Assembly: GCA_934691225.1 (NCBI GenBank) | Contig: CAKUSQ010000001.1 | Span: forward strand, 150,001 to 182,000 | Reading direction: 5' to 3' | Length of the DNA stretch: 32,000 nucleotides | Source of the DNA: an uncultured Opitutales bacterium | GTDB taxonomy: Bacteria > Verrucomicrobiota > Verrucomicrobiia > Opitutales > UBA9783 | In this document: one piece after another, positions 1-30,326 of the stretch | How the letters are laid out: each line of letters begins with the position of its first letter | How positions within the stretch are numbered: position 1 is the first letter of the stretch | Notes under the pieces: model-generated | The model's database searches: none | What the model was told of the DNA's origin: nothing | Seen by the model: only the letters and a program-made list of their open reading frames with translations | Position numbers and translations under genes: made by a program

Positions 1-1413
1 TTAAGCGATAACGTTTTATCGGAATATCTTTCCTTGCAAATCTTACAACGACCTCGAATGGCTATACATGAAGCATCTATTGCAAAACATGTGCAAAGAT
101 TGCACGAAGCTTCATCCCTTTTGCCAAACATACAGGTTGATCAAGCACTTGCTTGGGCAGAAAAAAAATTGCAAATCCAATGGTCTGAAACACAAAAAAC
201 TGCTTTAAAAAACATTTTAACATCCAAACTTTCCATCTTAACAGGAGGCCCTGGTACAGGAAAAACCACCTTATTGCGCGCACTTGTTGACGTTTTGTCA
301 GCCAAGCATATACGTTTATGTCTAGCTGCTCCTACAGGAAGAGCAGCCCAAAGAATGTCAGAAACAACCGGCCTTCCGGCTAGAACTGTACACAGAACTT
401 TAAAATTCGAACCTTCCATTGGACGTTTCACATTCGATGAAGAAAATCCATTACCTATTGATTTTTTAATTTTGGATGAATCCAGCATGTTGGATGTAGC
501 TCTAACCCATGCTTTGTTACGAGCAATTCCTGATCATGCTCATTTATTATTGGTAGGCGACATTAACCAGTTACCTTCTGTGGGTCCCGGCAATGTGCTC
601 AATGATTTCATAAACAATGCTTACTTTCATGTTGAATATTTAAGTGAAGTTTTTCGTCAAGGTAAACAAAGTTCAATTGTCGCTACTGCACATAGTATTT
701 TAGAAGGAAAACAAAAATTAACCTGTCCCATCGTTTTACCTAATGAATCTATAAATTTGGAAGAAGACTTTCATTTTATAAAAATTGATTCACCTCAAAT
801 CTGTATGGATGTACTGCAAGATTTTTACTGGAAAAAACTTCCAAAATGGTACCATGTAGATCCTATCCGCGATATCCAAGTTTTAGCACCTATGCATCGA
901 GGAGTTATCGGTATTGACCAAATAAATCAAGTTTTTCAACAGTACCTAGGAACGCAACGCAGAAAATTCGAAATAGGCGCACAAACTTATTTCATTGGCG
1001 ACAAAGTAATTCAACTCAAAAATAATTACGATAAAAACATCTTTAATGGTGATTTAGGATTTGTACAAGACATTGATAATGAAAATTCTAATGTAACTAT
1101 AAATTTCAACAATGAAGAACATGTTTTAACACTAAAAGATTGCTTAGATTTAAAACTAGCTTATGCAATTAGCATTCATAAATCACAAGGAAGCGAATTT
1201 CCCATTGTTATTATTCCTTTGTTCAAACAACACTTTGTTATGCTTAAACGCAATTTACTTTATACCGCCATCACACGCGGACGAAAAAAAGTTTTTATTC
1301 TCGGAGAACCACAAGCTTATTCCATGGCAGTCTATGCACTTGACAGCACTATTCGTTTAACTACACTTAACGATCGCTTAAATTACATGACTAACTCAAT
1401 GACAAACATTTAG
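1..1413 (+). CDS. recD2: RecD2-like ATP-dependent DNA helicase (SF1), 5'-truncated by the window edge
   Basis: Frame 1 is open from base 1; the track's 'M' at 34 is a TTG. Motifs seen: Walker A GGPGTGKT, Walker B FLILDESSM, GDINQLPSVGPG, and C-terminal SIHKSQGSEF...YTAITRGRKKV, typical of the RecD/TraA family. Walker A lies only ~70 aa into the ORF, so the N-terminal part must be upstream of the window. Confidence 0.85.
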   Translation, partial: LSDNVLSEYLSLQILQRPRMAIHEASIAKHVQRLHEASSLLPNIQVDQALAWAEKKLQIQWSETQKTALKNILTSKLSILTGGPGTGKTTLLRALVDVLSAKHIRLCLAAPTGRAAQRMSETTGLPARTVHRTLKFEPSIGRFTFDEENPLPIDFLILDESSMLDVALTHALLRAIPDHAHLLLVGDINQLPSVGPGNVLNDFINNAYFHVEYLSEVFRQGKQSSIVATAHSILEGKQKLTCPIVLPNESINLEEDFHFIKIDSPQICMDVLQDFYWKKLPKWYHVDPIRDIQVLAPMHRGVIGIDQINQVFQQYLGTQRRKFEIGAQTYFIGDKVIQLKNNYDKNIFNGDLGFVQDIDNENSNVTINFNNEEHVLTLKDCLDLKLAYAISIHKSQGSEFPIVIIPLFKQHFVMLKRNLLYTAITRGRKKVFILGEPQAYSMAVYALDSTIRLTTLNDRLNYMTNSMTNI

Positions 1414-1633
1414 CAAAATCCAAATCATTTAAAAGTTTAAATTGAGATTGTAATTTCGAATCTAGTAATTCATTAAAAAATCGCCCTAAGTCTTCATCTA
1501 ATAATATATGTCCACCTAATGACTGTATGATACCATCAATACGATACAAAGGCTCTCGTGAATGCCTCAAATGTATGTCAGATGCTTTAAGCTCTAACCC
1601 CTTCTCAATTATCCCTGCCAGTAGCTCATCCAT
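1391..1633 (-). pseudogene. pilT: PilT/PilU-type retraction ATPase, N-terminal ~80-aa remnant (ATPase core missing)
   Basis: MDELLAGIIEKGLELKASDIHLRHSREPLYRIDG...LNDLDFA aligns by eye with the first ~75 aa of PilT (MDITELLAFSAKQGASDLHL..PPMIRVDG...ETDFSF). The ORF stops before the Walker A region, and its 3' end overlaps the recD2 stop by 23 nt. Confidence 0.6.
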
Positions 1634-1678: not shown

Positions 1679-1798
1679 CGCCTGGCAATCCCCTACTCTC
1701 ACACCACAGTACATGGCACTACCATCGGCAGCTTAGGGCTTAACGTTCGTGTTCGGTATGTGTACGCGTGTTTCCCCTGCGCTTATCGTCACCAGGCA
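1679..1798 (-). rRNA. rrf: 5S rRNA (ends approximate)
   Basis: The reverse complement reads TGCCTGGTGACGATAAGCGCAGGGGAAACACGCGTACACATACCGAACACGAACGTTAAGCCC...GAGAGTAGGGGATTGCCAGGCG. The 5'/3' helix I pairs (GCCTGGTG / TGCCAGGC), and the CCGAAC and GAGAGTAGG motifs are conserved. Confidence 0.9.
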
Positions 1799-1904
1799 AA
1801 TCTTTTTCCTTCAGCTATAACCATAGCTTACTCGCTTTTTTGACCCTTTTTGATGCTTAATGAATATCGCTTCCCAACTACCCATAAACTTACCATAACT
1901 TCAC

Positions 1905-4815
<2,911 letters not shown>

Positions 4816-5205: not shown

Positions 5206-6739
<1,534 letters not shown>

Positions 6740-7104: not shown

Positions 7105-7548
7105 ATGAATACATTACCCTCTGAACTAGTTTCATTGCTAGGCTCATCCATATTCGGCAGCACCATGCGCTTACTAAGTTTTTCACTCATGGCACATCAC
7201 CGAGAAAAACTCCTAAAATTAACCAAAGCTCGCTTACAAGAAAATTCCATTGCAGCAGCGAGAAATCACCCTAGATCCAATCTTCAATTAACACGCCTTC
7301 TCATTACTATCCTAGCTGTATTTTCCATCGTACTTCTGCCTAAAATTATTGCAATTATACGCCCAGAAATTCCAATTTCTATTGGATACACACAAATTAG
7401 CGATGGGTTTTTATTCTTCTCATCTGCTAACGAAAAAATTCGTTGGACCGAACTTCGAGGGCTTGTAATCACTCCTTTAGATACACATCTCTTATCCGCC
7501 GTCATTGGACTCTATTTCGGAAGCGCTCTTGTAGATATAAAAGCTTAA
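7105..7548 (+). CDS. hypothetical membrane protein, first gene of the phage-like cluster (possible holin-like protein)
   Basis: 147 aa. Hydrophobic segments include LLITILAVFSIVLLPKIIAII and a C-terminal LLSAVIGLYFGSALV, with an amphipathic helix between the N-terminal segment and the TM segment. The architecture resembles multi-TM phage/GTA holins. No homology was verified. Confidence 0.4.
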   Translation: MNTLPSELVSLLGSSIFGSTMRLLSFSLMAHHREKLLKLTKARLQENSIAAARNHPRSNLQLTRLLITILAVFSIVLLPKIIAIIRPEIPISIGYTQISDGFLFFSSANEKIRWTELRGLVITPLDTHLLSAVIGLYFGSALVDIKA

Positions 7549-7552
7549 AATC

Positions 7553-7828
7553 ATGAATACTTCTAACGAAATTATTCGCAAAAACCTGCTGATTCAATTG
7601 GAAGCCGCTTACCCCATATCGCTCCCTGCTGAAACATTGCAACAAGGACTACACATCGCAAGAATTCCGGTACCTTATCACATTCTTATAAAGGAACTCG
7701 AATATTTGCTAGAAAAAGGTTTCCTATCTACAACCCTCAACGAATTATACCCGAAAAACCGAAGGTACAAATTATCCACCAAAGGCATCGATTTCTTAGA
7801 CAATGAAAACACAATCCACCGATTTTAA
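7553..7828 (+). CDS. small winged-helix-like protein (possible DNA-binding or packaging-recognition protein)
   Basis: 91 aa. The helix-turn-helix plus beta-wing pattern (..LIKELEYLLEKGFLSTT...NRRYKLSTKGIDFL) resembles PadR/MarR-type wHTH. It lies two genes upstream of the large terminase. Confidence 0.4.
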   Translation: MNTSNEIIRKNLLIQLEAAYPISLPAETLQQGLHIARIPVPYHILIKELEYLLEKGFLSTTLNELYPKNRRYKLSTKGIDFLDNENTIHRF

Positions 7829-8132
7829 CGAACATCTTAAGCGCATTAAAACCGCAAAAAATACAGCATCGATCTTGGAACAAATGACAATGGCTGAAAA
7901 ATCTATGGGCATTTTATGGGAACAAATTTTCGATATCTTATGCATAAATCCACAAACCAACGACTTTACTATACTTAAAGAAATGACATCCATCCTCAGC
8001 AAACTTTTAAACAATTACCGACAATTGTTTGCCATTTCGAAAAAAATCAATGGACAAACGAATAATGATAATGCATGGGCAATTTCTGAAAGTGTTTTAA
8101 AAGAAATCGAAGAACAACTTGAATTACTCTAA
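7803..8132 (+). CDS. candidate terminase small subunit (positional call)
   Basis: 109 aa, helical and coiled-coil-rich. Its stop overlaps the terminase large-subunit start (TAATG at 8130-8134), indicating translational coupling. No motif-level support. Confidence 0.35.
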   Translation: MKTQSTDFNEHLKRIKTAKNTASILEQMTMAEKSMGILWEQIFDILCINPQTNDFTILKEMTSILSKLLNNYRQLFAISKKINGQTNNDNAWAISESVLKEIEEQLELL

Positions 8133-9457
8133 TGACTTTTTTTCTCCCTTACCAAATTCGTTGGATTCAAGATAATTCTCGCATAAAAATTATGGAAAAA
8201 TCGCGTCAAATAGGCCTCTCATGGTCAACCGCTTACAAAACAGTACGCCACGCTGCTTGTTTTCCAAATACGTACTACTGGATTTGTTCACGCGATACAT
8301 TTCAAGCACAATTGTTTCTAGAGGACTGCAAATCTTTCGCCAATATTTTAAACAAATCATTCGAAGAAAAAATGATCCTACAAGGCAATTCCAGTCGCTC
8401 TTCATTATTGCTTAACAATGGGAGCGCTCTATTTGTATTATCATCTCATAAAAATGCTCAAGCAGGCAAACATGGATCGCGCATTTTAGATGAATTTGCA
8501 TTGCATGAAAATCCTGAAGAATTGTACAATATTTCTTATCCAGGCATTACTTGGGGAGGTCAGCTCGAAATTATTTCCACACATCGAGGTGCTCACAATT
8601 TTTTCAATCGTCTCATTGAAGAAATTCGAAATGGCAATAACCCTAAACATATTTCTTTGCACCGTGTCACTTTAACAGACGCACTTGAACAAGGTTTTTT
8701 AAAAAAATTAAAAACAAAACTTCCAGCTGATGATCCACGCCAAACCATGGATGAAAGCGACTATTATAACTTTATAAAAAGTTCTTGTGCAACGGAAAAA
8801 AGTTTTTTGCAAGAATATATGTGCCAACCTGTTGATGACGACAACGCATTTCTTACCTTCGAAAATCTCGATGGATGCTTCTATGAACATAATGCTGCAT
8901 GGCAACAATGTACACAAGGTCCTTGTTTTATGGGCGTAGATTTAGCACGTACTCAAGATTTAAGCGTTTTTGCCATCTTCGAAAAATACAATGATATTTA
9001 TTTTTTAAGAACATTAAAATGCTTAAAAAATGCTCGCTTTGATGAACAAGAAGCTTTGTTTGAACAGCTATTTAACACCTACCCTATTCAACACGCTTGC
9101 ATTGATCAAACAGGCATTGGCCGTCAATTTTTAGAACGTGCACAAATTCACTTCGGAACACATTGCATAACTGGTATTCAATTTACAGCTAAAACGAAAG
9201 AAAATTTAGCCTACAACTTAAAAACGCACCTAGAACGAAATGCGCTTCGCATTCCACGAGATGAACATTTAATTCAAGATTTATTAAGTTTGAAAATCAA
9301 TGAAAAATCTCAATTAAACGCTCAACACAGTACGCATGGACATGCTGACCGTTTTTGGGCGATTGCTCTCGCTATCAATGCGGATAACCCACGCCAATCT
9401 TTACACTTTTCAACCGAATTTTTCCCTATTTCAAAACATTCTATTTATGAAAACTAA
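8132..9457 (+). CDS. terL: phage terminase large subunit
   Basis: The N-terminus LPYQIRWIQD...EKSRQIGLSWSTAY is the Walker-A-like motif of the Terminase_6/Mu gp28-type TerL. Walker B is RILDEFA. The C-terminal RNase-H-like nuclease has acidic motifs (GVDLARTQDLSVF, IDQTGIG, HADRFWA). 441 aa with no interruptions. Confidence 0.9.
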   Translation: MTFFLPYQIRWIQDNSRIKIMEKSRQIGLSWSTAYKTVRHAACFPNTYYWICSRDTFQAQLFLEDCKSFANILNKSFEEKMILQGNSSRSSLLLNNGSALFVLSSHKNAQAGKHGSRILDEFALHENPEELYNISYPGITWGGQLEIISTHRGAHNFFNRLIEEIRNGNNPKHISLHRVTLTDALEQGFLKKLKTKLPADDPRQTMDESDYYNFIKSSCATEKSFLQEYMCQPVDDDNAFLTFENLDGCFYEHNAAWQQCTQGPCFMGVDLARTQDLSVFAIFEKYNDIYFLRTLKCLKNARFDEQEALFEQLFNTYPIQHACIDQTGIGRQFLERAQIHFGTHCITGIQFTAKTKENLAYNLKTHLERNALRIPRDEHLIQDLLSLKINEKSQLNAQHSTHGHADRFWAIALAINADNPRQSLHFSTEFFPISKHSIYEN

Positions 9458-10643
9458 TCCTTACTTAACATCATTTCGACAAGACAGTTTGTCTCGCTTG
9501 AATTGGAACCCTATCCGTTCACTAACACCTGCATCTTTATCACGAATACTCGATGACTTTCATGCAGGTAAATTGAGGCAAGCCGCACTTATTTGGGATG
9601 CCATCGAACACCGCGACGATTTGCTTCAAGGGGTCATCTCGAAGCGAAAAAAATCTATATCACGGCTTCCATGGGAAATTCTTATGCTCGACAACTCTGA
9701 TGAAGCTTTCAGACATAAACATTTACTAGAGCAATTCTACAATAACGCTTCCTGCATCAACGCTTACGATGAAAATGAACGCGGAGGAATTCCATTGCTT
9801 ATACGTCAAATGATGGATGCTATCGGAAAACGTTATGCTGTACATGAAATTGTTTTTAAACCTTTTGTTAAGAATTCAAAAAAATACTTAACGGCTGAAT
9901 TTCGCTTCGTTCCTCTATTTTTTTTCGAAAATAAAAATGGACGTTTACATTTCGTCGAAAAACCTAATGACAAAAAAATTCCATTGAAATCAGACGAATG
10001 GCTCATCACAACCGGCGACGGACTTATGGAATCATGCTCTATTGCCTACCTATTCAAACATTTACCTTTACGTGATTGGTTAATCTACTGCGAACGCAAT
10101 GGTATGCCAGGCGTTAAAGGCATTACCCATGCCCGTCCTGGAACCCCTGAATGGGAAGTGGCGCGTGAAGCTGTACAAAATTTTGGTGCCGAATTTCACG
10201 CATTAATGTCCACAGGAACAGATATTCAAGCCATTGATATCTCAGGCAAAGGCGAACTTCCGTATCCTAAACTTGTAGAACGGATGGATAGAGCTATGGC
10301 AGCTTTATGGCGCGGATCCGACCTGATGACATTGGGTCAAAAAGATGGCACTGGAGTCAACGCCCAACGCAATGAACGCGACCTATTGGAAGAAGATGAT
10401 GCTCAAATGATTTCAGATACTTTAAATGCACAAGTTGATCGTTGCGTCTTAAAATATCTAGATGGAACAGAACATCCTAAAGCCTACTTTCAATTAAAAA
10501 CAGCACCTAACAAAAATCTGAACAATGATTTAAATATTGTAAAAACACTGTGGGAAATGGGTATACAACTAAGCATAAACGACATTCGTGAACACTTCGG
10601 TATTAACCCTCCTTACAATGAAAAAGACACGTTAAGAAAATAA
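9447..10643 (+). CDS. phage portal protein, Mu gp29/DUF935-like
   Basis: I trimmed the start to the in-frame ATG at 9447 (MKTNPYLTSFRQ...), which overlaps the TerL stop by 11 nt. The track's 9336 start would run 120 nt inside terL. The N-terminal LRQAALIWDAIEHRDDLLQGVISKRKKSISRLPWEI matches my memory of the DUF935 portal signature. The gene lies immediately after TerL. Confidence 0.8.
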   Translation: MKTNPYLTSFRQDSLSRLNWNPIRSLTPASLSRILDDFHAGKLRQAALIWDAIEHRDDLLQGVISKRKKSISRLPWEILMLDNSDEAFRHKHLLEQFYNNASCINAYDENERGGIPLLIRQMMDAIGKRYAVHEIVFKPFVKNSKKYLTAEFRFVPLFFFENKNGRLHFVEKPNDKKIPLKSDEWLITTGDGLMESCSIAYLFKHLPLRDWLIYCERNGMPGVKGITHARPGTPEWEVAREAVQNFGAEFHALMSTGTDIQAIDISGKGELPYPKLVERMDRAMAALWRGSDLMTLGQKDGTGVNAQRNERDLLEEDDAQMISDTLNAQVDRCVLKYLDGTEHPKAYFQLKTAPNKNLNNDLNIVKTLWEMGIQLSINDIREHFGINPPYNEKDTLRK

Positions 10644-10652
10644 TTTACGAAT

Positions 10653-11243
10653 ATGAAAACTTGGATACAAATATCGCCTTACGGAACGTTTGACCACCCC
10701 ATGGGCAAACAATCAATTTCACCCATTGACGCAAAAAACTGCGTTAAAAAAACGAAAACATTTTTATTTCGCCTAGGATTTAAAAAAATCCCTGTTTACA
10801 TTGGGCATCCTGATGACCCTTTTTTTCAAGATTCCTACACACACATGAACAAAAATATCTACGGATATGTAAAAAATATACGGGCAGACGATCATGGTTT
10901 ATGGGTACAAATTAATTGGACAGCAGACGGAAGCGAGTTGATCGATAATCAATGCTATACCTATCTGTCTCCACGCTGGAAAATGGGCAAGATGTCTTAC
11001 GAAAAAGCATATCATCCAGAAAAGCTTATTTCCGTCGGTCTCACAACTACACCTAATTTACCTGTACAAGCTATTTACGAAAGAACACCTTTGAGTCACT
11101 TATCCTCACAGGTACAAAAACGTTCTGAAAAAGTAGCTATTTTACAATTCACACAGAAAGTTCAACAACGCATGCAGGAAACCGGCGAAAGCTATCCCGA
11201 AGCATGGCATAATGTTTATAAAAATCACAAAATTGCTTATTAA
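10653..11243 (+). CDS. prohead protease/scaffold, Mu gpI-like (Mu-like_Pro family)
   Basis: The N-terminus WIQISPYGTFDHPMGKQ...IPVYIGHPDD resembles the 'W.q..P.G.f.h..G' opening of Mu-like prophage protein I. It sits between the portal and capsid genes. Confidence 0.6.
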   Translation: MKTWIQISPYGTFDHPMGKQSISPIDAKNCVKKTKTFLFRLGFKKIPVYIGHPDDPFFQDSYTHMNKNIYGYVKNIRADDHGLWVQINWTADGSELIDNQCYTYLSPRWKMGKMSYEKAYHPEKLISVGLTTTPNLPVQAIYERTPLSHLSSQVQKRSEKVAILQFTQKVQQRMQETGESYPEAWHNVYKNHKIAY

Positions 11244-11264
11244 AAACTTTCAAATATTTTCCCT

Positions 11265-11699
11265 ATGAAAAGAAAAATACATACTATCATGGCTAACTCG
11301 CATACAGCAGTTGGCATACACGAAGGTTCGTTAACAAAACATACAAAATTGGGTGACCTAAAAGCCTATACATTGATTTGTTTTGATGACGACGCTAATT
11401 ACGTTAAAACATGCGGAATCAACGATATCCCTTGGGGTATTTGTCAGCAAGACGCAGATGAAAAAGAAAGCATTGTTAGCATTCAACCACTGTCATCATG
11501 TGCAAAAACAGCACAGCTAAGATTAAGCAGTGATGTACAAGCAGGACAGTTTATTTGCTTGGATGATAACGGAAAAGTTAAAGCTTTGCCAACGACTGCA
11601 GGCACCTACAACGTTGTTGGCATTGCATTAAACACTGGTAAAAATAATGAATGTATCGAAGCACTCACAAGTTTACCACATAACATAGAAATTAAGTAA
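11265..11699 (+). CDS. head decoration/cement-like protein (DUF2190-like)
   Basis: 144 aa. The C-terminal VQAGQFICLDDNGKVKALPTTAGTYNVVGIALNTG matches the typical DUF2190 pattern (G..v.....G.v.........GiA). It lies immediately upstream of the capsid gene, as with lambda D-E. The start may instead be the internal M9. Confidence 0.55.
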   Translation: MKRKIHTIMANSHTAVGIHEGSLTKHTKLGDLKAYTLICFDDDANYVKTCGINDIPWGICQQDADEKESIVSIQPLSSCAKTAQLRLSSDVQAGQFICLDDNGKVKALPTTAGTYNVVGIALNTGKNNECIEALTSLPHNIEIK

Positions 11700-11701
11700 T
11701 T

Positions 11702-12604
11702 ATGGAAACAACAATACAAGCCACTGAAAGCCAATTTAACCAAAATAATTATTCTGACGAATTAACACAATTTGCTCAAAATTGGCAAGATAACGAAAAT
11801 ATCGAAAACTTACTGAACTTTATAGCGCCTAAAGTTCCTGTTTCGAGACGTTTTGAGTATAAAAAATCAGACACAGATCAAATATTCTGTTCAGAAAATG
11901 ACGATTTGAGAGCTCTAGGTAGCAGTTTCAAACGCATCGAATTCGATGGTTCTATGATTCAAGCCAAAACTTTGAACAAAGGCTTAACAGTACGTATCGA
12001 CGCGGATGATATTGTTGGTGAAGATTGGGAAGAACGTTATGTTCATTTGCTGATGAAACGTTTATTCAGGAATGAACTTCGACGCGCCGTTGCTGCATTA
12101 AAAACAAATGCTCAGGTCATTGAAAAAACCTGGACGCCCGAAAGTCAACCCGACATGGACATACGTGAAACGCTTCTACAAAATGGACAAGCACATGGCT
12201 TTTATCCTAATCGACTTCTCTTCGGCGAATTAGCTTGGTACTTACGTCAGGATTGTTATGCCATTCAAAACAACGCCGGTGCTCGTATATCTTCAGAAAT
12301 GTCAAGAGAAAATCTGGCAGAAAAATTACTTGTAGAAGATATCAAATTACTGAAAAAACAAAACCTAGGTATTCAAGGCAATGAAATCACTGGTAACGAA
12401 ATCTTTGCTTTTTACGCCCAAAATGGTTTGTTAAAGGATGAACCTTCCAACATCAAACGCTTTATAACGCCTACCGATGAAGGATATTTATTCCGCGTTT
12501 ATATAGAAAAACATACAAAATTCACCGATATCACGGTTGAGCATTACAGCAATATCGTTGTTACTTCCAACACTAACATCACGCAGCTTAACGTTAAAAA
12601 ATAA
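11702..12604 (+). CDS. major capsid protein (HK97-fold, lambda gpE / Mu gpT-like, by position and size)
   Basis: 300 aa. It follows the protease and decoration genes and is followed by a strong stem-loop. The sequence character is consistent with the capsid E-like family. No verified alignment. Confidence 0.7.
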   Translation: METTIQATESQFNQNNYSDELTQFAQNWQDNENIENLLNFIAPKVPVSRRFEYKKSDTDQIFCSENDDLRALGSSFKRIEFDGSMIQAKTLNKGLTVRIDADDIVGEDWEERYVHLLMKRLFRNELRRAVAALKTNAQVIEKTWTPESQPDMDIRETLLQNGQAHGFYPNRLLFGELAWYLRQDCYAIQNNAGARISSEMSRENLAEKLLVEDIKLLKKQNLGIQGNEITGNEIFAFYAQNGLLKDEPSNIKRFITPTDEGYLFRVYIEKHTKFTDITVEHYSNIVVTSNTNITQLNVKK

Positions 12605-12617
12605 CCCTGAATCAATT

Positions 12618-12641
12618 ATTGAGAGGTACCAACCTCTCAAT
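12618..12641 (+). terminator. perfect 10-bp stem / 4-nt loop hairpin directly after the capsid gene (attenuator or mRNA-stabilising element; no U-tract)
   Basis: ATTGAGAGGT-ACCA-ACCTCTCAAT begins 14 nt after the capsid stop. It is the only sizeable intergenic structure inside the cluster. Confidence 0.45.
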
Positions 12642-12651
12642 CCATCGTATC

Positions 12652-13089
12652 ATGAAATCACTCTCCTGGATTTTTTTAGAAGAAATAGCTATATCAGATT
12701 ATTTAGCTAACGATCAGTTAAATTTATTATCTACTTATAAAACGCAAGAACCTTCATCGCTTTTAAAAAATATCATTAAAGATATTTGTACTTTAATCCA
12801 AAGTCGAATTCCAGAAAAACTACATCCTTGTCCTATGGCAACCAATCAGCTACCATCAGCCTGTAAAACAGCTGCCTGCCATTTGGTGATAGAAGCATTA
12901 CAAACGCGAATTCCAGAGCTACAATTATCCGAAGGTCAGATTCGAAATGCGCAACAAGCACGCACAACGCTTGATGATCTCTACAAATACTGGGTTGATC
13001 AAACTAAACCATCGACCTTTCAACCCCACATCGAAGCCGTTCGATATCGAATACGTGAATCGAGCAACACAACCTTAAAAGGATTATGA
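12652..13089 (+). CDS. head-tail connector/adaptor candidate (Mu gp36/DUF1320-like?)
   Basis: I trimmed the start to the ATG at 12652, because the track's TTG start at 12619 lies inside the hairpin. 145 aa. It is the first gene after the capsid gene, and its N-terminus ...ISDYLANDQLNLLS resembles the DUF1320 opening. Low certainty. Confidence 0.4.
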   Translation: MKSLSWIFLEEIAISDYLANDQLNLLSTYKTQEPSSLLKNIIKDICTLIQSRIPEKLHPCPMATNQLPSACKTAACHLVIEALQTRIPELQLSEGQIRNAQQARTTLDDLYKYWVDQTKPSTFQPHIEAVRYRIRESSNTTLKGL

Positions 13090-13538
13090 AACCTATTTTA
13101 AAGTGCATTCAAACATCTATCATCGATTATTTAAAATCGAATGAACATATTCAAAACCAAGCAAATATCCTCAGGAACGAAACTTTTTCACTGGATGAAT
13201 TTGGAGAAAATAAATTCGCATCCACCTATCCGCTTTGTCTTTTAGTCTCCTACCCTTTTCCCATACAAGCAACCGTTGATGTTTCTGCGCCTTGTTGGGA
13301 AAAATTATCACTTCATTGTTTACTAATACAAAAATTATCCATTGCATCAACTTCTCAATTCCTCAACCTAGCTGAAGAAATAAGTTATACTATTTCGCAT
13401 CAAAAATTCTCTAATGCGGTTTGGGAAGGAACTTTTGTTTTGTCAGAAAACCATCCTTGGGAATGGTTTAAAATAAAACAAGGGTTTGGCCTAAAAATTA
13501 ATTTTACAACTTCAAATTTTAATCTTTTGCTTCCATGA
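13086..13538 (+). CDS. hypothetical phage structural protein (head completion/connector candidate)
   Basis: 150 aa. It has ATGA overlaps with both neighbours (13086-13089 and 13535-13538). No recognisable motif. Confidence 0.35.
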   Translation: MKPILKCIQTSIIDYLKSNEHIQNQANILRNETFSLDEFGENKFASTYPLCLLVSYPFPIQATVDVSAPCWEKLSLHCLLIQKLSIASTSQFLNLAEEISYTISHQKFSNAVWEGTFVLSENHPWEWFKIKQGFGLKINFTTSNFNLLLP

Positions 13539-13933
13539 AAATTACCTTAAATGAACATATTTTAGCGAACGGAAACTTGACCAATGAAAATCCTATCCAT
13601 TTTGAAATTTCAGGTCAAAGGAATTTGCAAATTATAAAAGCTATTCAAGCACCTAATGTACAAACTTTGGATCGAGGAAATTTGCAAATCAAGCTAACTT
13701 TTCAAGTTGGTCGGCGCCACAAATCCCAAAACGATGCGATACAACATATGCTTGTTCACGCTAGTGAACTTGTAAAAGCACACGGAACATTAAAAATCGA
13801 ACTAGAAGACTCACTCAACCGCTCTTTTGTATTAGAATCCGCAACACTACAGCGAATTCAAACACAATACCGTGGAAATGCTTCTTATTCAACCTACGAA
13901 ATCTATGGAGGTCATTTGCATGTCAACCAATGA
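13535..13933 (+). CDS. hypothetical phage structural protein
   Basis: 132 aa with a beta-rich sequence character. It is translationally coupled upstream. No recognisable motif. Confidence 0.35.
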   Translation: MKITLNEHILANGNLTNENPIHFEISGQRNLQIIKAIQAPNVQTLDRGNLQIKLTFQVGRRHKSQNDAIQHMLVHASELVKAHGTLKIELEDSLNRSFVLESATLQRIQTQYRGNASYSTYEIYGGHLHVNQ

Positions 13934-14039
13934 TAACAATGCCCTTTGGGATGCATTGATGGAACAAATCGATCAAATTCGTGCCTTAGAATATGACATT
14001 CAAGAACTTCGTGAACAAATAGCTAACTTAAGGAATTAA
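13920..14039 (+). CDS. unannotated 39-aa coiled-coil micro-protein
   Basis: ATG at 13920, sequence MSTNDNNALWDALMEQIDQIRALEYDIQELREQIANLRN, stop TAA at 14037-14039. The stop abuts the ATG of the next gene (14040). The ORF overlaps the previous gene by 14 nt and fills the only otherwise unexplained 106-nt gap in the operon. It is below the ORF-track length cutoff. Confidence 0.5.
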   Translation: MSTNDNNALWDALMEQIDQIRALEYDIQELREQIANLRN

Positions 14040-15734
14040 ATGACCTGGTATTTATCTTATCGAGGAACCAAAAAATCGTTTTCTGAATGGAACATATTCC
14101 ACGCAACACGACGCATTTTAAATCAAGGAACAGACACTTTTTCATTTCAATCAGAACGAAATACCCTTCCATTCAATTGCGATGAAATTGTCGAAATTTT
14201 CAAAGACAATACACGATGGTTTTATGGCCGTATCACACAAATTCCGTGCGAATACACAACCGATCAAACGTACAAAACTTATCTGGTTTCAGGCCCAAAT
14301 TGGTACCTTGAACACTTAGTTTATCAACAACCTTGGCAATATTTCAAAGATGGAGATCAAACTCAAACCGTCCCTATCAATCGCAGCCTTTGCGTATTAG
14401 GACAAGATGAAAATGGCAACACAATCAATGCGCAACAATGCTTAACCAATATCATACAATACGCCATTCAACACGGAGCACCTATCACTTGCGGTAACAT
14501 CCAAGGTTTTAATTTTCTATTCCCATGTGAAACCATTAAGGATTGCAGCTGTGCTGAAGTTATTAAAAAACTTTTTCGTTGGACACCAGATGCGGTTATT
14601 TGGTTTGATTATGCAACTGCCAAACCTACGCTTCACATTTCGCGTGGTGAATTTTTAAAATCAAATACATTATCTATCCATAAACTCTCAAAATTTACAT
14701 TAAATCCACGAAAAGATTTAAAAGTAAGTTCCGTTGTTATTAAATATGAACACACGCATTCTAATGAAAATACATCTTGGAAAACCACCACAATCGATGC
14801 TTATCCTCAAAATGCTACAGGTGAGGAACTCAATGCTCTCGTACTCACTATTGAATTAGAAGGTACACAAACCCATTTGCAAGAACAATGGGTACAGGTA
14901 CAACCTATAAAAACAGATAGTATTGACTGGTGGAAACAACATTTCCCAACGCTTGCATCTATCCCTAATGACAAAATCAATTTATCGAATATCAAGCGAA
15001 ACACGAAATATCCAAACGAACTTATCGAAGGTGCCATTGCCCCATGGATGTGTTGCAGAGCTGCCTATGAAACCATAACCGCTGACATAAGTTACTTGTC
15101 TAAAACTTCAAGCATTGTTAACAGCACTATTTCACTAAAAATTTGCGCGACCGATGCCTACTCAAAAACTTATCGAAATTTGATTTTTTTGAAAACAGGT
15201 GTAAAACCTCCTACAAATTTAGCAAAGATTTTGTATGATGCAACAACTTGTTTGCAATACGAAGGTACGTTAAAAACGGATCAACATGATTTAGCAAACT
15301 CTCACATGGGACAACGACTTAATTTTTCCAATGGTGAAACAGAATGGGAGCACATTAACGTACCAGTTCAAGAAGAATATATGGTTATAGATACAGGGAC
15401 GACATCCCTTAAATTTGGTGCCCCCAAACAATTAGGCCCCAATGACCTTATTCAACTATTACAATCCAATCGCGCTCGAAATATTACAGATGACTTAAAC
15501 CAACGTTTCGCCTCAAAAAGTTCTGGTCAAACCACAACTTATTTTCCACACATAACCCCTATTATTAATTCAAATAGTGACCATGGAAATTATGCAAGTT
15601 TAATCATTTGTAATGCCGATAAAAAAATAAAATTGGATACAACTGAATTACCTCCAAATACCGAAATTACATTTAAACCTTTCGATATTGTCGAAAATGG
15701 TCAATTGAAAAAAATTTGGATACTTTCATCTTAG
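14040..15734 (+). CDS. large distal structural protein (tail hub, nozzle or receptor-binding candidate), family unknown
   Basis: 564 aa, the largest ORF in the cluster. An AAGGA SD-like motif lies 8-12 nt upstream, one of the very few in this window. Its position matches that of tail or host-specificity proteins. No motif recognised. Confidence 0.4.
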   Translation: MTWYLSYRGTKKSFSEWNIFHATRRILNQGTDTFSFQSERNTLPFNCDEIVEIFKDNTRWFYGRITQIPCEYTTDQTYKTYLVSGPNWYLEHLVYQQPWQYFKDGDQTQTVPINRSLCVLGQDENGNTINAQQCLTNIIQYAIQHGAPITCGNIQGFNFLFPCETIKDCSCAEVIKKLFRWTPDAVIWFDYATAKPTLHISRGEFLKSNTLSIHKLSKFTLNPRKDLKVSSVVIKYEHTHSNENTSWKTTTIDAYPQNATGEELNALVLTIELEGTQTHLQEQWVQVQPIKTDSIDWWKQHFPTLASIPNDKINLSNIKRNTKYPNELIEGAIAPWMCCRAAYETITADISYLSKTSSIVNSTISLKICATDAYSKTYRNLIFLKTGVKPPTNLAKILYDATTCLQYEGTLKTDQHDLANSHMGQRLNFSNGETEWEHINVPVQEEYMVIDTGTTSLKFGAPKQLGPNDLIQLLQSNRARNITDDLNQRFASKSSGQTTTYFPHITPIINSNSDHGNYASLIICNADKKIKLDTTELPPNTEITFKPFDIVENGQLKKIWILSS

Positions 15735-15761
15735 CACTTTAACTCTCAACATCTTTATTTT

Positions 15762-16436
15762 ATGCCAATAATTCCAAAATTTAGAACTTTTGTAAATGAA
15801 CTAGGAGTTAGTCCTAATATCTCCTTAATCTCTAACAAATATCTTCGTTCATCTGTCATTGTAGATGCTCAAACATATATGCAACTATATTGGCGATTTT
15901 ACAAATTAATTATCGATTACAAATACACTGTTAATAATCAGCCCATTTCTCGAATGCTCGTCGTTACTGATGATGAACCTGACTATAAAAGTCGAATTGA
16001 TGCAACATGGGAAGTATTCAAAAAAAAATCATTTAAAGAAGGGGCAGGCATATCTTCTATGGTCGCATTTACATTGTCCTGTCCCGCTTCCCCTTTTTCC
16101 AACAACTCAATAGACGAAAATTGTCGCGAGGAACGTTCTAAAAAGGCTATTACAGCGAGTCGACATGCACAAAGAATAGATCCTAATACCCAAATTCATC
16201 TATCTTTTTTATTTGAAGAATTAGCAAGTGATGCAGATTTTCATTTTGACAACAATTCTCCAAGCCTCCTTAAAGATGCTCAAATGTACAAAACTTTACA
16301 TACATTAACGACTGATTTTTTAGGATCTCCACAAACTTTTTATTTATATACTTCCAAACCCAGAAAAATTCAAGGTTACATAAATTACGTAAAAATAACG
16401 TATGAATTATACAGCATTCCTAATGAAAATAGCTAA
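15762..16436 (+). CDS. hypothetical protein, last gene of the phage-like cluster
   Basis: 224 aa on the same strand, with a 27-nt gap to the previous gene. No recognisable motif. Confidence 0.35.
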   Translation: MPIIPKFRTFVNELGVSPNISLISNKYLRSSVIVDAQTYMQLYWRFYKLIIDYKYTVNNQPISRMLVVTDDEPDYKSRIDATWEVFKKKSFKEGAGISSMVAFTLSCPASPFSNNSIDENCREERSKKAITASRHAQRIDPNTQIHLSFLFEELASDADFHFDNNSPSLLKDAQMYKTLHTLTTDFLGSPQTFYLYTSKPRKIQGYINYVKITYELYSIPNENS

Positions 16437-16501: not shown

Positions 16502-17497
16502 ATGGAAGGTATCAGTTTATTTTTCGTTGTATTTGCATTTTTACTATTAGCTGTTATAGCGATTGTTTTTTCATTCTTTAATGTTTGGTTGCGTGCATGG
16601 TTAGCTGGAGCTTACGTAAGTATACCCAATTTAGTAGCCATGCGTTTAAGGAAAGTTCCTTATGGTCTGATTGTTGATTGCAGAATCACAGCTGCTAAAG
16701 CAGGTATTGAGCTATCTGTCGATGAACTTGAAGCTCACTATTTAGCAGAAGGTAATCTGTCTCAAACCGTTCAAGCACTTATTGCTGCTGACAAAGCGGG
16801 TATTGAGTTATCATTTTCACGTGCTTGTGCTATCGACTTAGCCACCAAAGGAACGGGTAAAACTGTCATTGAAGCAGTTCATACTTCTGTAAACCCAAAA
16901 GTCATTGACTGTCCCAAAGCAATCCAAGGAAAATCAACTATCGATGGTGTTGCTAAAGATGGTATTCAGGTTAAAGTGCGTGCTCGAGTAACGGTACGAA
17001 CCAATTTGGATAGGTTTGTAGGTGGAGCTCAAGAAGATACGATCATTGCTCGTGTAGGCGAAGGTATTGTTGCTACTATCGGATCCGCTGAAACGTATAA
17101 ACAAGTACTTGAAACTCCTGATCAAATTTCAAAAGTTGTGCTTAATCGTGGTCTTGATGTCGGTACTGCTTATGAAATACTTTCGATCGACATTGCAGAC
17201 ATTGATATTGGAGAAAACGTAGGTGCAAAATTACAAGTTTCTCAAGCAGAAGCCAATAAAAATATGGCACAAGCACAAGCTGAAATTCGTCGTGCAAGTG
17301 CAGTTGCTTTAGAACAAGAAATGAAGGCACGCGTTGAAGAAATGCAAGCCAAAGTTGTGGAAGCGCAAGCAACAGTTCCGTTAGCATTAGCAGAAGCTTT
17401 CAAGCAAGGTCATTTAGGGGTTATTGATTACTATAAATTAGAAAACATGAAGGCAGATACCTCAATGCGCGAACAACTAGCCAACACGTCCCATTAA
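16502..17497 (+). CDS. floA: flotillin-like protein FloA (SPFH domain)
   Basis: 331 aa, collinear with B. subtilis FloA/YqfA as I recall it: ...HYLAEGN...[21 protein letters not shown]...VNPKVI...[32 protein letters not shown]...[59 protein letters not shown]. Confidence 0.92.
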
Positions 17498-22035: not shown

Positions 22036-22223
22036 AATGTTAGATTAATATAAATTTTTCTTTTACTCAAGCTTTTTAAAATACACCTCCACTTCATTCG
22101 CAACATTTTTGTTAAATAACCAGCTTAGCTTCGCATTTAATGGCTTACAAATACCAATTTTTGAAAAGAAGATAAAAAATAAGATTGACCCCGAAAGAAA
22201 ATTTTCGAATTCTGTATAGCATT

Positions 22224-22358
22224 ATGCAACCTACTTATTCACCATCTAAAATAAAAAGAGCTAGAATGTGCGGGTTTTTTGCAAGAAAAGCCACTAAAGG
22301 AGGACGTAAAGTTCTTGCTGCCAGACGTCGGAAAGGACGCAGGAAGCTGTGCGCATGA
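22224..22358 (+). CDS. rpmH: 50S ribosomal protein L34 (not in ORF track; below cutoff)
   Basis: [44 protein letters not shown] matches the L34 pattern (..QPS..KR.R.HGF..R..T..GR.VL..RR.KGR..L). It lies directly upstream of rnpA. Confidence 0.92.
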
Positions 22359-22364
22359 TCGAAT

Positions 22365-22715
22365 GTGAAAAAAGAGCAAAAAATTTGTAAAAACAATGAC
22401 TTTAAAAACTTGTATCGTAATGGTTTAAAATTGCGATCTCAAGGTTTTGTGGTTTATTGCCGAAAATCTAAAACTCATCATCGTATGGGGATTGTTATTT
22501 CAAGGAAATTTGGGAATGCTGTTGTAAGAAACAAATTCAAAAGGCGCGTAAGAGCCTGGTTTACTTCTTACGATTTTGATGCTCAAACCCCTTACGATAT
22601 TTTGGTAATTGCAACACACACTGATGTTACACACTTAACATTTAATTCGCTTACAACAAAACTAAACGAGGTTCTTGGTAAGTTTTTAAAGCTTAACGCG
22701 TCTTATGAATTTTAA
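22365..22715 (+). CDS. rnpA: RNase P protein component
   Basis: GTG start. 116 aa and basic, with the ...GIVISRKFGNAVVRNKFKRRVR.. RNR-like motif. The rpmH-rnpA-yidD-yidC synteny is conserved. Confidence 0.88.
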   Translation: MKKEQKICKNNDFKNLYRNGLKLRSQGFVVYCRKSKTHHRMGIVISRKFGNAVVRNKFKRRVRAWFTSYDFDAQTPYDILVIATHTDVTHLTFNSLTTKLNEVLGKFLKLNASYEF

Positions 22716-22977: not shown

Positions 22978-24618
22978 ATGGATAAAAAAAATTTTATAAT
23001 TGGAATTACTTGTTTATTCGCAGCTTTCACATTGTTTCTTAATCAAGAAAAACAATTGCGTGAAAACTTAAATCAAACGGCAGTCACCTCTTCAAATAAA
23101 CCGGAAGCACCCACAACTGCACCCGACCAAACACCAAGCCGTGTTCATTATTTTCAACCCACTATTTCTGCCGCAAAAATCTTAACGCTTGAAAATGATG
23201 TTATTCGCGTAAATTTTTCGGATGTAGGTGGAGCTATCCAGTCGATTGAACTTAAACATTATTGTGCAGATCAAAATAAGGAAACGCCTTACTTATTCAA
23301 CAAAAATGCAACTATTCCTGCCTTAATGCTTGCATGGAATTCAAAAACTCCAATCACAAATTCATTTGCTGTAACTGAAAAAACAGAAAACTTCATTCAA
23401 TTTAGCACTACACTTTCAGATGGAACAACAATCGTTCGAGGATATCGCCTTGAAAAATCCGATGCAAGTAACCCTTACATTATAAAGAACGAATTTTCGG
23501 TTCAACAGTCCCAACTCACGCATGATCACATTTTTTTACACTTGGGAATGATGCCCGACACACCTGGAGACAAATATTTAGAATACTTGAATTTTAGTGC
23601 CTTTGATGGTAAAAAAGCTGACTTTAAACGAATTGCCGATTTTGAACCAAGCAGTGGATTTTTAGGATTTGGCAAACACGATGGTCATCCTTATTTACAG
23701 GGAAACGATTCTTATATTTGGGGAGCTTTAAAAAATCAGTTCTTTGTAGCCATTTTAACGCCAAAAACACCGGCTGATGGGTACATTACATTTCCCAAAA
23801 AACAAGGTAAGCAAAATACAATTGAAGGAATCTTACAGTTTAATCTAAATAGCACTCATACGCGCATCACATCTGACTATTACGTGGGGCCTAAAGATTT
23901 TATCCTTCTTGATAAAATGGGAAAAAGTCAAGATCAACTCATGCAATTTGGATTTTTTGGCGCTGTTAGCAAATTGCTTTTAATGTCTATGCGCGGTATT
24001 CATTCTTTTGTACCTAACTGGGGATGGACAATCATTGTTCTTACTATTATTATTAAGCTGCTATTGTGGCCTATCACACAAGCTCAGTTACGTTCTTCTA
24101 AAAAAATGGCATCCATTCAAGAGCCACTGAAGAAAATTCGTGAAAAATACAAAAGCAATCCACAAAAACTTCAAATGGAAACCATGAAACTATTTAAAGA
24201 AAATCGCGTAAATCCGGCTGCAGGATGCTTGCCAGTATTTATCCAAATTCCTATCTTTATTGGGTTATATTACATGCTACGTACCTCGTCAGAAATACGA
24301 TTTCAGTCATTTCTTTGGATTCAAGACCTTTCTGTTCCAGACACTATTGGATTTATAGGATCCTTTCCTATCAACATTTTACCATTAATCATGGGTATCA
24401 CCATGTTCGTACAGATGAAAATTACGCCAACCCCTTCCATGGATGGAATGCAGCAAAAAGTTATTATGTGGATGCCTTTTATATTCCTCATTTTTTGCTA
24501 CAGTTTCCCAGCAGCCTTGGTGTTATACTGGACAGTTCAAAATCTTTTTACCATTTTTCAGCAATGGTTAACAAATCGCTCTTTAAAAAAAGTTCAAACA
24601 ACAACCCTTAATCAATAA
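22978..24618 (+). CDS. yidC: membrane protein insertase YidC (long diderm form with a periplasmic domain)
   Basis: 546 aa: an N-terminal TM segment, a large periplasmic domain, and a C-terminal 60-kDa IMP core (WGWTIIVLTIIIKLLLWPIT..Q..S..KM..IQP....I.EKYK.....Q.E.MKL.KE..VNP..GCLP..IQIPIF..LY). Confidence 0.95.
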   Translation: MDKKNFIIGITCLFAAFTLFLNQEKQLRENLNQTAVTSSNKPEAPTTAPDQTPSRVHYFQPTISAAKILTLENDVIRVNFSDVGGAIQSIELKHYCADQNKETPYLFNKNATIPALMLAWNSKTPITNSFAVTEKTENFIQFSTTLSDGTTIVRGYRLEKSDASNPYIIKNEFSVQQSQLTHDHIFLHLGMMPDTPGDKYLEYLNFSAFDGKKADFKRIADFEPSSGFLGFGKHDGHPYLQGNDSYIWGALKNQFFVAILTPKTPADGYITFPKKQGKQNTIEGILQFNLNSTHTRITSDYYVGPKDFILLDKMGKSQDQLMQFGFFGAVSKLLLMSMRGIHSFVPNWGWTIIVLTIIIKLLLWPITQAQLRSSKKMASIQEPLKKIREKYKSNPQKLQMETMKLFKENRVNPAAGCLPVFIQIPIFIGLYYMLRTSSEIRFQSFLWIQDLSVPDTIGFIGSFPINILPLIMGITMFVQMKITPTPSMDGMQQKVIMWMPFIFLIFCYSFPAALVLYWTVQNLFTIFQQWLTNRSLKKVQTTTLNQ

Positions 24619-24626
24619 ATTTAATC

Positions 24627-25373
24627 ATGTCAGGACATAGTAAATGGTCTACGATCAAACGTCATAAAGCGTTAGTTGACGCTAAACGAGGAAAAATGTT
24701 TAGCATCATTGGCAAAGAAATTACCTTAGCTGTAAAAACAGGCGGCAAAAACGCTGATTTTAACCCACAATTACGCGCATTGTTGGCCAAAGCCAAATCA
24801 GCCAATATGCCTAATGAAAACATACAAAAAGCGATTCAAAAAGGAACAGGAGAAATACCAGGACTTCAAATTGAAGAATTGATTTACGAAGGTTACGGTC
24901 CAGGTGGCGTTGGTTTCATTGTTGAAGTTACCACCGATAATAAAAATCGAGCTGTTTCCGATGTTCGAAACGCGTTTTCAAAGTGTGGCGGAAATCTAGC
25001 CAATTCGGGCGCACTTGCTTTCACATTTCAACGCAAAGGTCAGTTTTTTATCTCAAAAGATAAAGTCAATGAAGATAAATTATTGGAAATAGCTCTAGAC
25101 GCAGGTGCAGAAGACGTAACAACGGAAGAAGATCATTACGAAGTTGTTTGCGAAGTTGCTGAATTTTATAAAGTTTCTAAGGCATTTGAAGATGCGAAAA
25201 TTGAGCCTGAATCTTCAGATTTGGTTTATTTACCACTAACAACTATCCCTATTAATGATGCAGATTTAGGCAGCAAATTATTAAAACTTGTAGAACGCCT
25301 CGAAGACCTTGAAGATGTTAAGGAAGTTTACACCAATTATGAACTTGATCCAGCTTTAAATCTGGAAGCATAA
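24627..25373 (+). CDS. yebC: YebC/PmpR-family probable transcriptional regulator
   Basis: MSGHSKWSTIKRHKALVDAKRGKMFS...YEGYGPGGV...VEV.TDNKNR is the hallmark YebC N-terminus. 248 aa. Confidence 0.93.
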   Translation: MSGHSKWSTIKRHKALVDAKRGKMFSIIGKEITLAVKTGGKNADFNPQLRALLAKAKSANMPNENIQKAIQKGTGEIPGLQIEELIYEGYGPGGVGFIVEVTTDNKNRAVSDVRNAFSKCGGNLANSGALAFTFQRKGQFFISKDKVNEDKLLEIALDAGAEDVTTEEDHYEVVCEVAEFYKVSKAFEDAKIEPESSDLVYLPLTTIPINDADLGSKLLKLVERLEDLEDVKEVYTNYELDPALNLEA

Positions 25374-26428: not shown

Positions 26429-26540
26429 TTATTTAAAAAACTAAATTTTTAAGATAATTGCAATCCTAAACATTCACTTTTTAACACAAACAAAAACATC
26501 ATTGAGGAAAAATAAAATGCCATCAAGGCCTTATAGAAAA

Positions 26541-30223: not shown

Positions 30224-30326
30224 ATTAGGTTACATTTTTCTTTTTATCGAGCGAAAACTTAAATTCTTTCCATTGATTTTCAAAATTTCTAAAAATCGTT
30301 CAATTCCTTCCGATTTCATATATCAT

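Follow-up and report, generated by a model that had tools for sequence, protein, structure and literature searches.

A compact phage-derived packaging, head and short-tail cassette, probably domesticated and vertically inherited in Opitutales, as a candidate gene transfer agent

The stretch of DNA analysed here (the window) comprises 32,000 nucleotides of the genome of an uncultured Opitutales bacterium of the phylum Verrucomicrobiota (GenBank assembly GCA_934691225.1, contig CAKUSQ010000001.1, positions 150,001 to 182,000), and holds a tightly packed phage-derived cassette of 9.3 kb (7105-16436) with 14 open reading frames (ORFs), all on the forward strand (Table 1). This cassette is probably a domesticated, chromosomally fixed cluster of particle genes, a 'viriform' similar to a gene transfer agent (GTA), that is inherited vertically in the order Opitutales. 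An initial annotation, made from the letters of the sequence, had already described packed same-strand ORFs across this interval in what it rightly took for a Verrucomicrobia-like lineage; its count of thirteen rises to 14 with the addition of a small coiled-coil gene ending at 14039. The junctions between genes are all as it gave them, namely a TAATG at 8130-8134, an 11-nt overlap of the terminase large subunit (TerL) and portal genes (9447-9457), ATGA at 13086 and 13535, and a stop-start abutment at 14039/14040. The bounds it described, the ribosomal RNA (rrn) operon on the left and floA on the right, were likewise found.

Table 1. Features of the window, with tail-fibre genes of related loci (numbers after family or structure names are E-values)
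Feature	Position	Strand	Length	Assignment and matches
pilT stub	1391-1633	(-)	80 aa	truncated; aligns only with N-terminal ~70 residues of PilT (PDB 2ewv_A, 0.004)
rrn operon, 5S	1680-1796	(-)
rrn operon, 23S	1901-4814	(-)
rrn operon, tRNA-Ile and tRNA-Ala		(-)
rrn operon, 16S	5208-6739	(-)
o1	7105..7548	(+)	147 aa	membrane protein, first cassette gene; phrog_38283, function unknown, 2e-8
o2	7553..7828	(+)	91 aa	small wHTH-like protein of the packaging module; phrog_3983 2e-7
o3	7803..8132	(+)	109 aa	candidate small terminase subunit (TerS), by position
TerL	8132..9457	(+)		ATPase and RNaseH-like nuclease; Terminase_6N 9e-10, Terminase_6C 1e-10, phrog_5909 1e-36
Portal	9447..10643	(+)	398 aa	Mu gp29 type; Portal_Mu 6e-60, phrog_113 9e-31
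Prohead protease	10653..11243	(+)	196 aa	Mu gpI type, minimal form; Mu-like_Pro 8e-11, phrog_328 5e-13
o7	11265..11699	(+)	144 aa	decoration/cement protein; phrog_673 3e-10, Phage_cement_2 0.02 (weak)
Major capsid protein (MCP)	11702..12604	(+)	300 aa	lambda gpE-like family; phrog_1005 'major head protein' 3e-5
o9	12619..13089	(+)	156 aa	head-tail adaptor, identified through homologues
o10	13086..13538	(+)	150 aa	conserved protein
o11	13535..13933	(+)	132 aa	tail-tube-fold protein (tube/Dit/Hcp family); AlphaFold2 (AF2) pLDDT 83.4
o12	13905..14039	(+)	~40 aa	coiled coil; ends exactly at hub start
o13	14040..15734	(+)	564 aa	tail/baseplate hub (gp27/Mu gp44/VgrG/Tal N-terminal type)
o14	15762..16436	(+)	224 aa	fast-evolving last gene, always 3' of hub
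FloA	16502-17497			right neighbour of cassette; Pfam 2e-145
ORF	25373-26068	(+)	231 aa	no Pfam match
FliO family	28555-28887	(-)	110 aa	flagellar FliO family 2e-9
ORF	30213-31007	(+)	264 aa	no Pfam match
Tail fibre, locus L034	12379-14786
Tail fibre, locus L039	10067-13096
Tail fibre, locus L086	12415-14595
Tail fibre, locus L070	4729-6255

Database searches gave 446 homologues of the MCP, of which the 120 listed are all at least 47% identical to the window protein; an identical MCP is present in metagenomes of the human gut, Hadza samples among them. Among the matches listed, every one named by organism came from Opitutales, Puniceicoccales or Verrucomicrobia, including the cultured genera Cerasicoccus, Ruficoccus and Rubellicoccus, and the MCP of the nearest species representative, a metagenome-assembled genome named 'Opitutales bacterium', is 81% identical. 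When one genome per GTDB species was scanned, 164 Opitutales/Puniceicoccales genomes held a relative of the MCP, a number of matches and not a carriage fraction. All locus-level results given below rest on 80 loci fetched from these 164 species representatives, one locus per assembly in 80 different assemblies. When their genes were traced with tblastn and iterated hidden Markov models (HMMs), the order terS-terL-portal-protease-cement-MCP-adaptor-o10-tube-(fibre)-coil-hub-o14 proved collinear in nearly all of them. Ratios of non-synonymous to synonymous divergence (dN/dS) were calculated for 14 pairs of species among these relatives, all with unsaturated dS (0.03-0.8), because dS between the window and its relatives was saturated.

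Family searches agree with the assignments originally proposed for TerL, portal, protease and MCP. The Walker A (KSRQIGLS), Walker B (ILDEFA) and nuclease acidic residues (Asp270/325/406) that had been pointed out in TerL are present and invariant in 45-47 of 49 family members, and the catalytic residues of both TerL and the protease are intact. The portal (398 aa in the form given by gene callers; the mechanical ORF begins at 9336) has the strongest conservation of any cassette gene, with 78-87% identity within the window's clade. The protease, which matches the N-terminal protease part of Mu-like_Pro, retains GHPD (His52) and SPRW (Ser106), both invariant across 29 proteases, together with a C-terminal TGExYxxAW motif. 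Protease length is 193-211 aa in the window and five loci of its clade and 240-400 aa elsewhere; the longer proteases of other clades possess a helical, scaffold-like insert between the protease domain and TGExYxxAW that is gone in the window's clade, where the scaffolding role may be lost or relocated. The decoration-protein call on o7, with its weak direct match to Phage_cement_2, stands because the family profile matches solved capsid decoration proteins (PDB 6qyy_A, 'capsid fiber protein', 4e-7; 9gay_C, 'minor capsid protein', 8e-4). The MCP (dN/dS 0.01-0.13) is gpE-like, not gpT-like, and its profile matches 3bjq_A weakly (0.064). Compared with the head module of Mu, the portal and protease families are shared, and neither a gp30-like (F) gene nor transposase A/B was found in the cassette.

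Upstream of terL lie three smaller genes. The membrane protein o1 is strongly hydrophobic over residues ~58-95 and less so over ~120-147; HMM searches recovered it from 21 loci, Cerasicoccus among them, with identities of 48-77% and dN/dS of 0.00-0.10, and we would guess it to be a holin with a role in lysis. The small winged helix-turn-helix (wHTH)-like protein o2 (dN/dS 0.00-0.13) is kept upstream of terS/terL in 24 loci as well as in the IMG/VR phage contigs L094, L100, L101 and L107. The TerS candidate, o3, has no family match in Pfam, PHROGs or NCBIfam; it always lies directly 5' of TerL, its stop overlapping the TerL start, and is kept in 41 loci with dN/dS of 0.00-0.16. An NCBIfam scan of ten cassette proteins returned no matches.

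The last six ORFs of the cassette have no match of their own in Pfam, PHROGs or NCBIfam, and profiles of o9, o10, o11, o13 and o14 recovered nothing significant from PDB sequences. Four homologues of o9, which is present in 71 loci, match phrog_195 'head-tail adaptor' (best 1e-5), and one matches phrog_477 'adaptor Ad1'. The top Foldseek matches of the o11 model in the PDB all belong to the tube family (antifeeding prophage tube 6rao_A, 9.5e-4; Hcp; lambda gpV, 8k36; SPP1 Dit, 2x8k), and chains 6toa_G and 6tba_50 of the GTA of Rhodobacter capsulatus (RcGTA) are also matched, with E-values of 0.03-0.04; o11 is present in 63 loci, and a PHROG scan of its homologues produced a single weak 'tail protein' match. 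The hub, o13 (dN/dS 0.06-0.14), yielded an AF2 model with pLDDT 85.8 and pTM 0.73, whose Foldseek matches in the PDB include the spike base of an extracellular contractile injection system (7b5h_AJ, 3e-13), the 43-kDa tail protein of MuSo2 (3cdd), Mu gp44 (1wru), VgrG, Tal of 80alpha (6v8i_AE) and the Bxb1 tail tip (9d93). Against BFVD it gave 397 matches at E<=1e-3, labelled 'tail protein / 43 kDa tail protein / protein D' or Tal.

For o10 (65 loci, dN/dS mostly 0.05-0.16) there was no match in Pfam, PHROGs, NCBIfam or the PDB, a PHROG scan of all its homologues was likewise empty, and hhalign detected no relation to o11; its position suggests a neck or stopper protein. The start codon of the coiled-coil gene o12 may be at 13872, 13905 or ~13920. 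An ORF in the o12 position, with a C-terminal EQLxNL[RK] motif, occurs in at least 35 loci from several clades and has no family match; it could serve as a channel plug or a miniature tape measure. The last gene, o14, found no family or PDB match and is only 24-45% identical among relatives whose hubs are 49-60% identical, still with dN/dS of 0.06-0.28, which makes it a candidate receptor-binding or tail-tip accessory protein. Because an adaptor, a tube-fold protein and a tail hub are encoded, the cassette is predicted to specify a head with a short tail, not a capsid-only module. The initial annotation had seen neither a tube nor conventional tail genes and had considered a capsid-only particle of the kind made by capsid-forming phage-inducible chromosomal islands (cf-PICIs); the homologies of o9, o11 and o13 contradict both views, and sister clades add a fibre and a fibre chaperone. 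Its remark that a tape measure is missing holds for a long one only: neither a sheath nor a tape measure of ordinary length is present in the cassette.

Four variants of the cassette were distinguished among the relatives, the window's clade having the compact form. In termite-gut and other Puniceicoccales, an extra tail fibre lies between the tube-fold gene and the coiled coil (PHROG tail-fibre matches to 1e-16). These inserted fibres have in common an N-terminal domain of ~170 aa, followed by highly divergent C-terminal parts (collagen-like or fibre repeats, with a large extra domain in L039) that constitute a hypervariable receptor-binding module; in L034 the fibre is accompanied by a fibre-assembly chaperone (phrog_4912, 3e-21). 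In L034, L039 and L086, the long ORFs that separate the hub from the tube-fold gene had been candidates for tape measures; this idea was rejected because their sequences and PHROG matches are those of tail fibres and a chaperone for fibre assembly. In a 'Merdousia'-like clade from the gut (L033, L063-L072, L077-L083, L085; portal at ~7.3 kb), terL is no longer next to the portal, which lies directly 3' of a UDP-glucose pyrophosphorylase gene, and terS/terL were not found within 10 kb upstream of it; three genomes of this type (L042, L043, L087) have terS/terL inverted ~2 kb upstream. The cassette is split in this clade, as in split GTA loci. Loci of the Cerasicoccus/Ruficoccus type (L053, L054, L055, L061, L076, L080, L084) keep o1, terS, terL, portal, protease, cement and MCP, and sometimes the adaptor.

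Evidence for chromosomal residence came from the genes around the cassette. Flanking genes are common within clades, and the recurrent ones that were scanned are core genes of metabolism or translation: for instance, 13 gut species have galK-galE-UDPGP before the portal...hub segment and a LysM/TPR protein and purH after it, five termite-gut species have accB-accC upstream, and five others a class I tRNA synthetase downstream. The location is conserved within clades only; the rrn-floA site, whose conservation was to be checked, is not shared across relatives. Both ends of the cassette are bordered by host genes, not only in the window but also in dozens of relatives, where contigs reach 1.77 Mb. 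The window ORFs that were scanned matched no integrase, repressor, replication or endolysin family, and no att-like repeats were found around the cassette, as had been reported from inspection by eye; the recurrent flank genes scanned in relatives gave no match to integrase, repressor or replication families either. What is found is a structural cluster resident in the chromosome without integration, replication or lysogeny modules, as expected of a GTA or viriform.

Selection and divergence were consistent with this picture. The dN/dS ratio, suggested at the outset for terL, portal and capsid, was low, mostly 0.01-0.25, for 13 of the 14 genes, including o1, o2, o10 and o14; the value for o12 is unreliable, the mechanical ORF boundaries being wrong for so tiny a gene. 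In the same pairs, dS of the cassette was close to that of adjacent host genes (e.g. 0.38-0.79 versus 0.56-0.77, and 0.27-0.69 versus 0.38-0.66), so that cassette and chromosome have diverged at the same pace. Its composition is host-like: overall GC is alike inside and outside, as first estimated by hand, and the k-mer and codon comparison proposed at that stage gave GC3 of 0.294 against 0.277 in host genes, a correlation of relative synonymous codon usage of 0.86 between cassette and host (0.89 from host to host) and a tetranucleotide correlation of 0.95-0.96. One exchange was detected. Between L031 (4820-6200) and L056 (9570-10903), the cement and MCP genes show dS of 0.45-0.80 and dN of 0.11, several-fold more than the remaining cassette (dS 0.10-0.36, dN 0.00-0.09); the MCPs of these two loci are only 50-52% identical to that of the window, and their TerL and hub group with the window's clade. 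Recombination thus seems to have replaced the capsid-shell segment in one lineage. Collectively, collinearity, clade-shared flanks, dN/dS, matching dS and composition point to vertical inheritance under purifying selection; together with the invariant motifs and housekeeping flanks they bear out the initial proposal of a host-retained particle module, as opposed to a dead prophage or one split by assembly.

Turning to phages, tblastn of the MCP against 50,697 GenBank phage records gave no match. In IMG/VR, seven short contigs carry the same cassette, some of them (L089-L093) flagged as viral, and 15 further contigs, ten of which are 31-58 kb long, encode MCPs 35-47% identical. The related contigs share the order wHTH-terL-portal-protease-cement-MCP-adaptor-o10-o11. 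The phage-sized ones (L094-L107) thus resemble the cassette in head lineage and gene order; they differ from it in size and in many extra genes, with portals of 485-605 aa, proteases of 357-500 aa, and DNA-pilot-like and further tail proteins. One of them, L094, has two tandem MCP paralogues (9935-10903 and 10988-11953; HMM E-values 4e-138 and 3e-110). Because the same gene order occurs in phage contigs of 31-58 kb, the head module is not a chimera built in this genome but derives from one phage lineage. The constituents listed in the earlier argument for a chimeric head (Mu-type portal and protease, gpE-like MCP, no gp30) were all confirmed, and the argument itself is weakened. The portal-protease-cement-MCP-adaptor order looks ancestral to one phage lineage, of which the Opitutales cassette is a stripped-down, chromosomally fixed derivative.

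In addition, the hub o13 is 24-31% identical to a protein of the Akkermansia phages DTMo-2021a, Chambord and Chantilly. In Chambord (L088, ON453894.1), the o13 profile matches the ORF at 24341-26548 and the o9 profile that at 22170-22604, both annotated 'hypothetical protein' and likely to function as hub and adaptor. These matches appear to link the cassette to phages of Akkermansia muciniphila, i.e. of another order of Verrucomicrobia. The likeness lies in the hub homologue; Chambord differs from the cassette in carrying an integrase, repressors, replication genes and an annotated tape measure.

Elsewhere in the window, every scanned ORF with a family match is a housekeeping gene, and nothing else in the 32 kb is phage-like. 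The left neighbour of the cassette is the 16S end of the rrn operon; beyond FloA follow an M50 peptidase, a HAD hydrolase, a GAF-T2SSE ATPase, rnpA-yidD-yidC, yebC, RNase P RNA, tRNAs, deoC and rplS. A scan for promoters and terminators gave counts at or below the expectation from shuffled sequences. The truncated 'pilT stub' noted initially does exist, between a RecD-like helicase gene and the 5S rRNA. The FliO family gene stands without other flagellar genes in the window, and two ORFs among the housekeeping genes have no Pfam match (Table 1).

From these genes a working model can be drawn. TerS and TerL, with the small wHTH protein, would pump DNA through the Mu-type portal into a procapsid of gpE-like MCP, matured by the gpI-type protease and stabilised by the cement protein. 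The adaptor and a second neck protein would close the head, to which a very short tail would attach, made of a hexameric ring of tube/Dit fold, a trimeric gp27-like hub, a coiled-coil plug or ruler of ~40 residues and a fast-evolving tip protein; in sister clades a tail fibre with its own chaperone would be added. The particles would most likely carry host DNA from a lysing subpopulation into related cells, and would be unable to propagate the cluster as a virus, because it has no replication, integration or lysogeny genes and measures only 9.3 kb. We infer the assembly of the particle, the geometry of its tail, lysis by way of the membrane protein, packaging of random DNA and transfer. The complete and conserved packaging motor argues for particles that would be filled with DNA, and attachment to a target cell and its penetration are suggested by the tube ring, hub and fibres. 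Gene transfer is the most economical reading of what the particle does, held tentatively and a little short of even confidence.

Several observations weigh against a GTA-like viriform. The cassette is known as a set of genes, from which particles and packaging are predicted, and o10, o12 and o14 were assigned no fold in the family and PDB profile searches as tried. The window yielded neither an endolysin nor a regulator, and a holin role for o1 is a guess. Loci of the Cerasicoccus/Ruficoccus type have no detected tube or hub gene within 10 kb downstream; their tail genes either lie elsewhere, are too diverged for detection, or have been lost or are dispensable. Inheritance has not been purely vertical, because of the signs of cement-MCP exchange between L031 and L056. 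No description of a GTA in Verrucomicrobia or Opitutales was found in the literature searched, a limited collection. Other uses of a particle that benefit the host would also be consistent with purifying selection and synteny, and the main rival to gene transfer, unlikely in our estimate, is a domesticated particle selected for a role other than transfer (PBSX-like killing, a vehicle for release of DNA or protein, defence or decoy) that packages DNA without productive delivery. All the evidence for domestication applies equally to such a particle, which would be well served by a hub of the membrane-puncturing gp27/VgrG type and by the variable fibres of sister clades, suggestive of diversifying pressure on target recognition. 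The same caveat is voiced in a gut-virome preprint for candidate GTAs of Faecalibacterium (bioRxiv 10.1101/2024.11.15.623857). A complete, conserved set of TerS, TerL and portal with intact nuclease residues would, however, be costly if the DNA content were irrelevant, and there is no sheath or other contractile machinery.

A satellite or helper-mobilised prophage is considerably less probable. The gene set (TerS, TerL, portal, protease, MCP and connectors in ~9 kb) is like the packaging modules of cf-PICIs, the IMG/VR entries L089-L093 are the same cassette flagged as viral, and the o7-MCP exchange of L031/L056 shows some horizontal movement, all of which would suit a satellite of cf-PICI type, or a defective prophage mobilised by a helper that supplies tail tube, lysis and replication. 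This explanation is largely refuted by the lack of integrase, replication and regulatory genes in the window and recurrent flanks scanned, where none of the cf-PICI hallmarks (integrase, alpA/stl-like regulator, pri-rep, att sites, variable insertion, a tail-less state) was found; by a position between core genes that is conserved within clades; by cassette dS equal to host dS and host-like composition; and by the single locus in each assembly fetched and the cassette's own tail-tip genes. Nor does the cassette form part of a temperate prophage, as contiguous integrase, repressor, replication, full tail and lysis modules are absent and host genes adjoin both ends. That it is an inert prophage remnant which has so far escaped decay might be supposed from a window without integrase, lysis enzyme or regulator and with a decayed pilT fragment nearby; it is refuted, and in our view has practically no probability left, given 14 intact genes collinear across species whose synonymous sites are mutually saturated, dN/dS mostly of 0.01-0.25 in 14 independent pairs, invariant catalytic residues and cassette dS equal to that of the flanks. 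On each point open to sequence comparison, the cassette appears as expected of a domesticated phage-derived particle, and unlike a prophage, a satellite or an inert remnant.

Among characterised systems close to the cassette, RcGTA (particle structures 6tba/6toa) parallels it in several respects: a chromosomal head-tail cluster without integrase and below the size of a phage genome, vertical inheritance across an order under purifying selection, parts that are sometimes split over several loci, and the order terS-terL-portal-protease-MCP-adaptor-...-hub. The fold match of o11 to tube-family chains of RcGTA is the only link seen between the two. The head genes of RcGTA are of the HK97 type, and it is on this description that the cassette is set apart, with its Mu-type portal and protease (PF06074, PF10123), gpE-like MCP and cement protein. 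RcGTA has ~15 kb and 17 genes, against 9.3 kb and 14 genes here; the Opitutales cassette also lacks a tape measure of the usual length, a set of megatron, Dit and tail terminator was not identified in it, and it belongs to another phylum. Its origin appears independent of RcGTA. The cf-PICIs share with it a compact set of TerS, TerL, portal, protease, MCP and head-tail connectors and the absence of a long tail. As mobile islands, they carry integrase, regulatory and replication genes and hijack the tails of helper phages; the cassette shows none of those genes, co-diverges with its host, sits between core genes and itself encodes a tube-fold ring and a hub.

For a gut commensal, the nearest precedent is a candidate GTA operon of 10.5 kb in Faecalibacterium, found by sequencing of capsid-packaged DNA from human faeces and backed by packaged-DNA reads of 8.4-8.9 kb, in a study that does not mention Verrucomicrobia (bioRxiv 10.1101/2024.11.15.623857). 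It is likewise a compact, near-ubiquitous head-tail operon in a human-gut commensal lineage that is proposed to be a GTA. The differences are that Faecalibacterium belongs to the Firmicutes and that packaged DNA was seen there, whereas the Opitutales cassette, in this respect also unlike RcGTA, is known from genes.

Apparently, a probable order-wide particle system under selection has so far gone undescribed in Opitutales. It is possible, with a likelihood a little below even, that Opitutales, including those of human and animal guts, carry an independently evolved and unrecognised GTA, the most compact yet (~9-12 kb), which combines a head of Mu lineage with a minimal tail without tape measure (one tube/Dit-type ring, a gp27-type hub and a coiled-coil ruler or plug of ~40 residues) and moves host DNA between cells of this phylum. 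To our knowledge, only a handful of independent GTA lineages exist. If the proposal is true, it would extend the domesticated viruses by a new phylum and a new structural solution, no GTA being on record for Verrucomicrobiota in the literature searched. Because some carriers are in culture (Cerasicoccus, Ruficoccus, Rubellicoccus and Puniceicoccaceae Marseille-Q1082, whose locus L082 runs from portal to hub), the GTA hypothesis is directly testable. The 14-gene set represents a natural minimal design for a tailed, DNA-packaging particle. Its carriers, at least 164 species, live in human, ruminant, chicken and termite guts and include marine isolates, and the cassette would, if the proposal holds, provide a route of gene exchange in an otherwise hard-to-study gut lineage.

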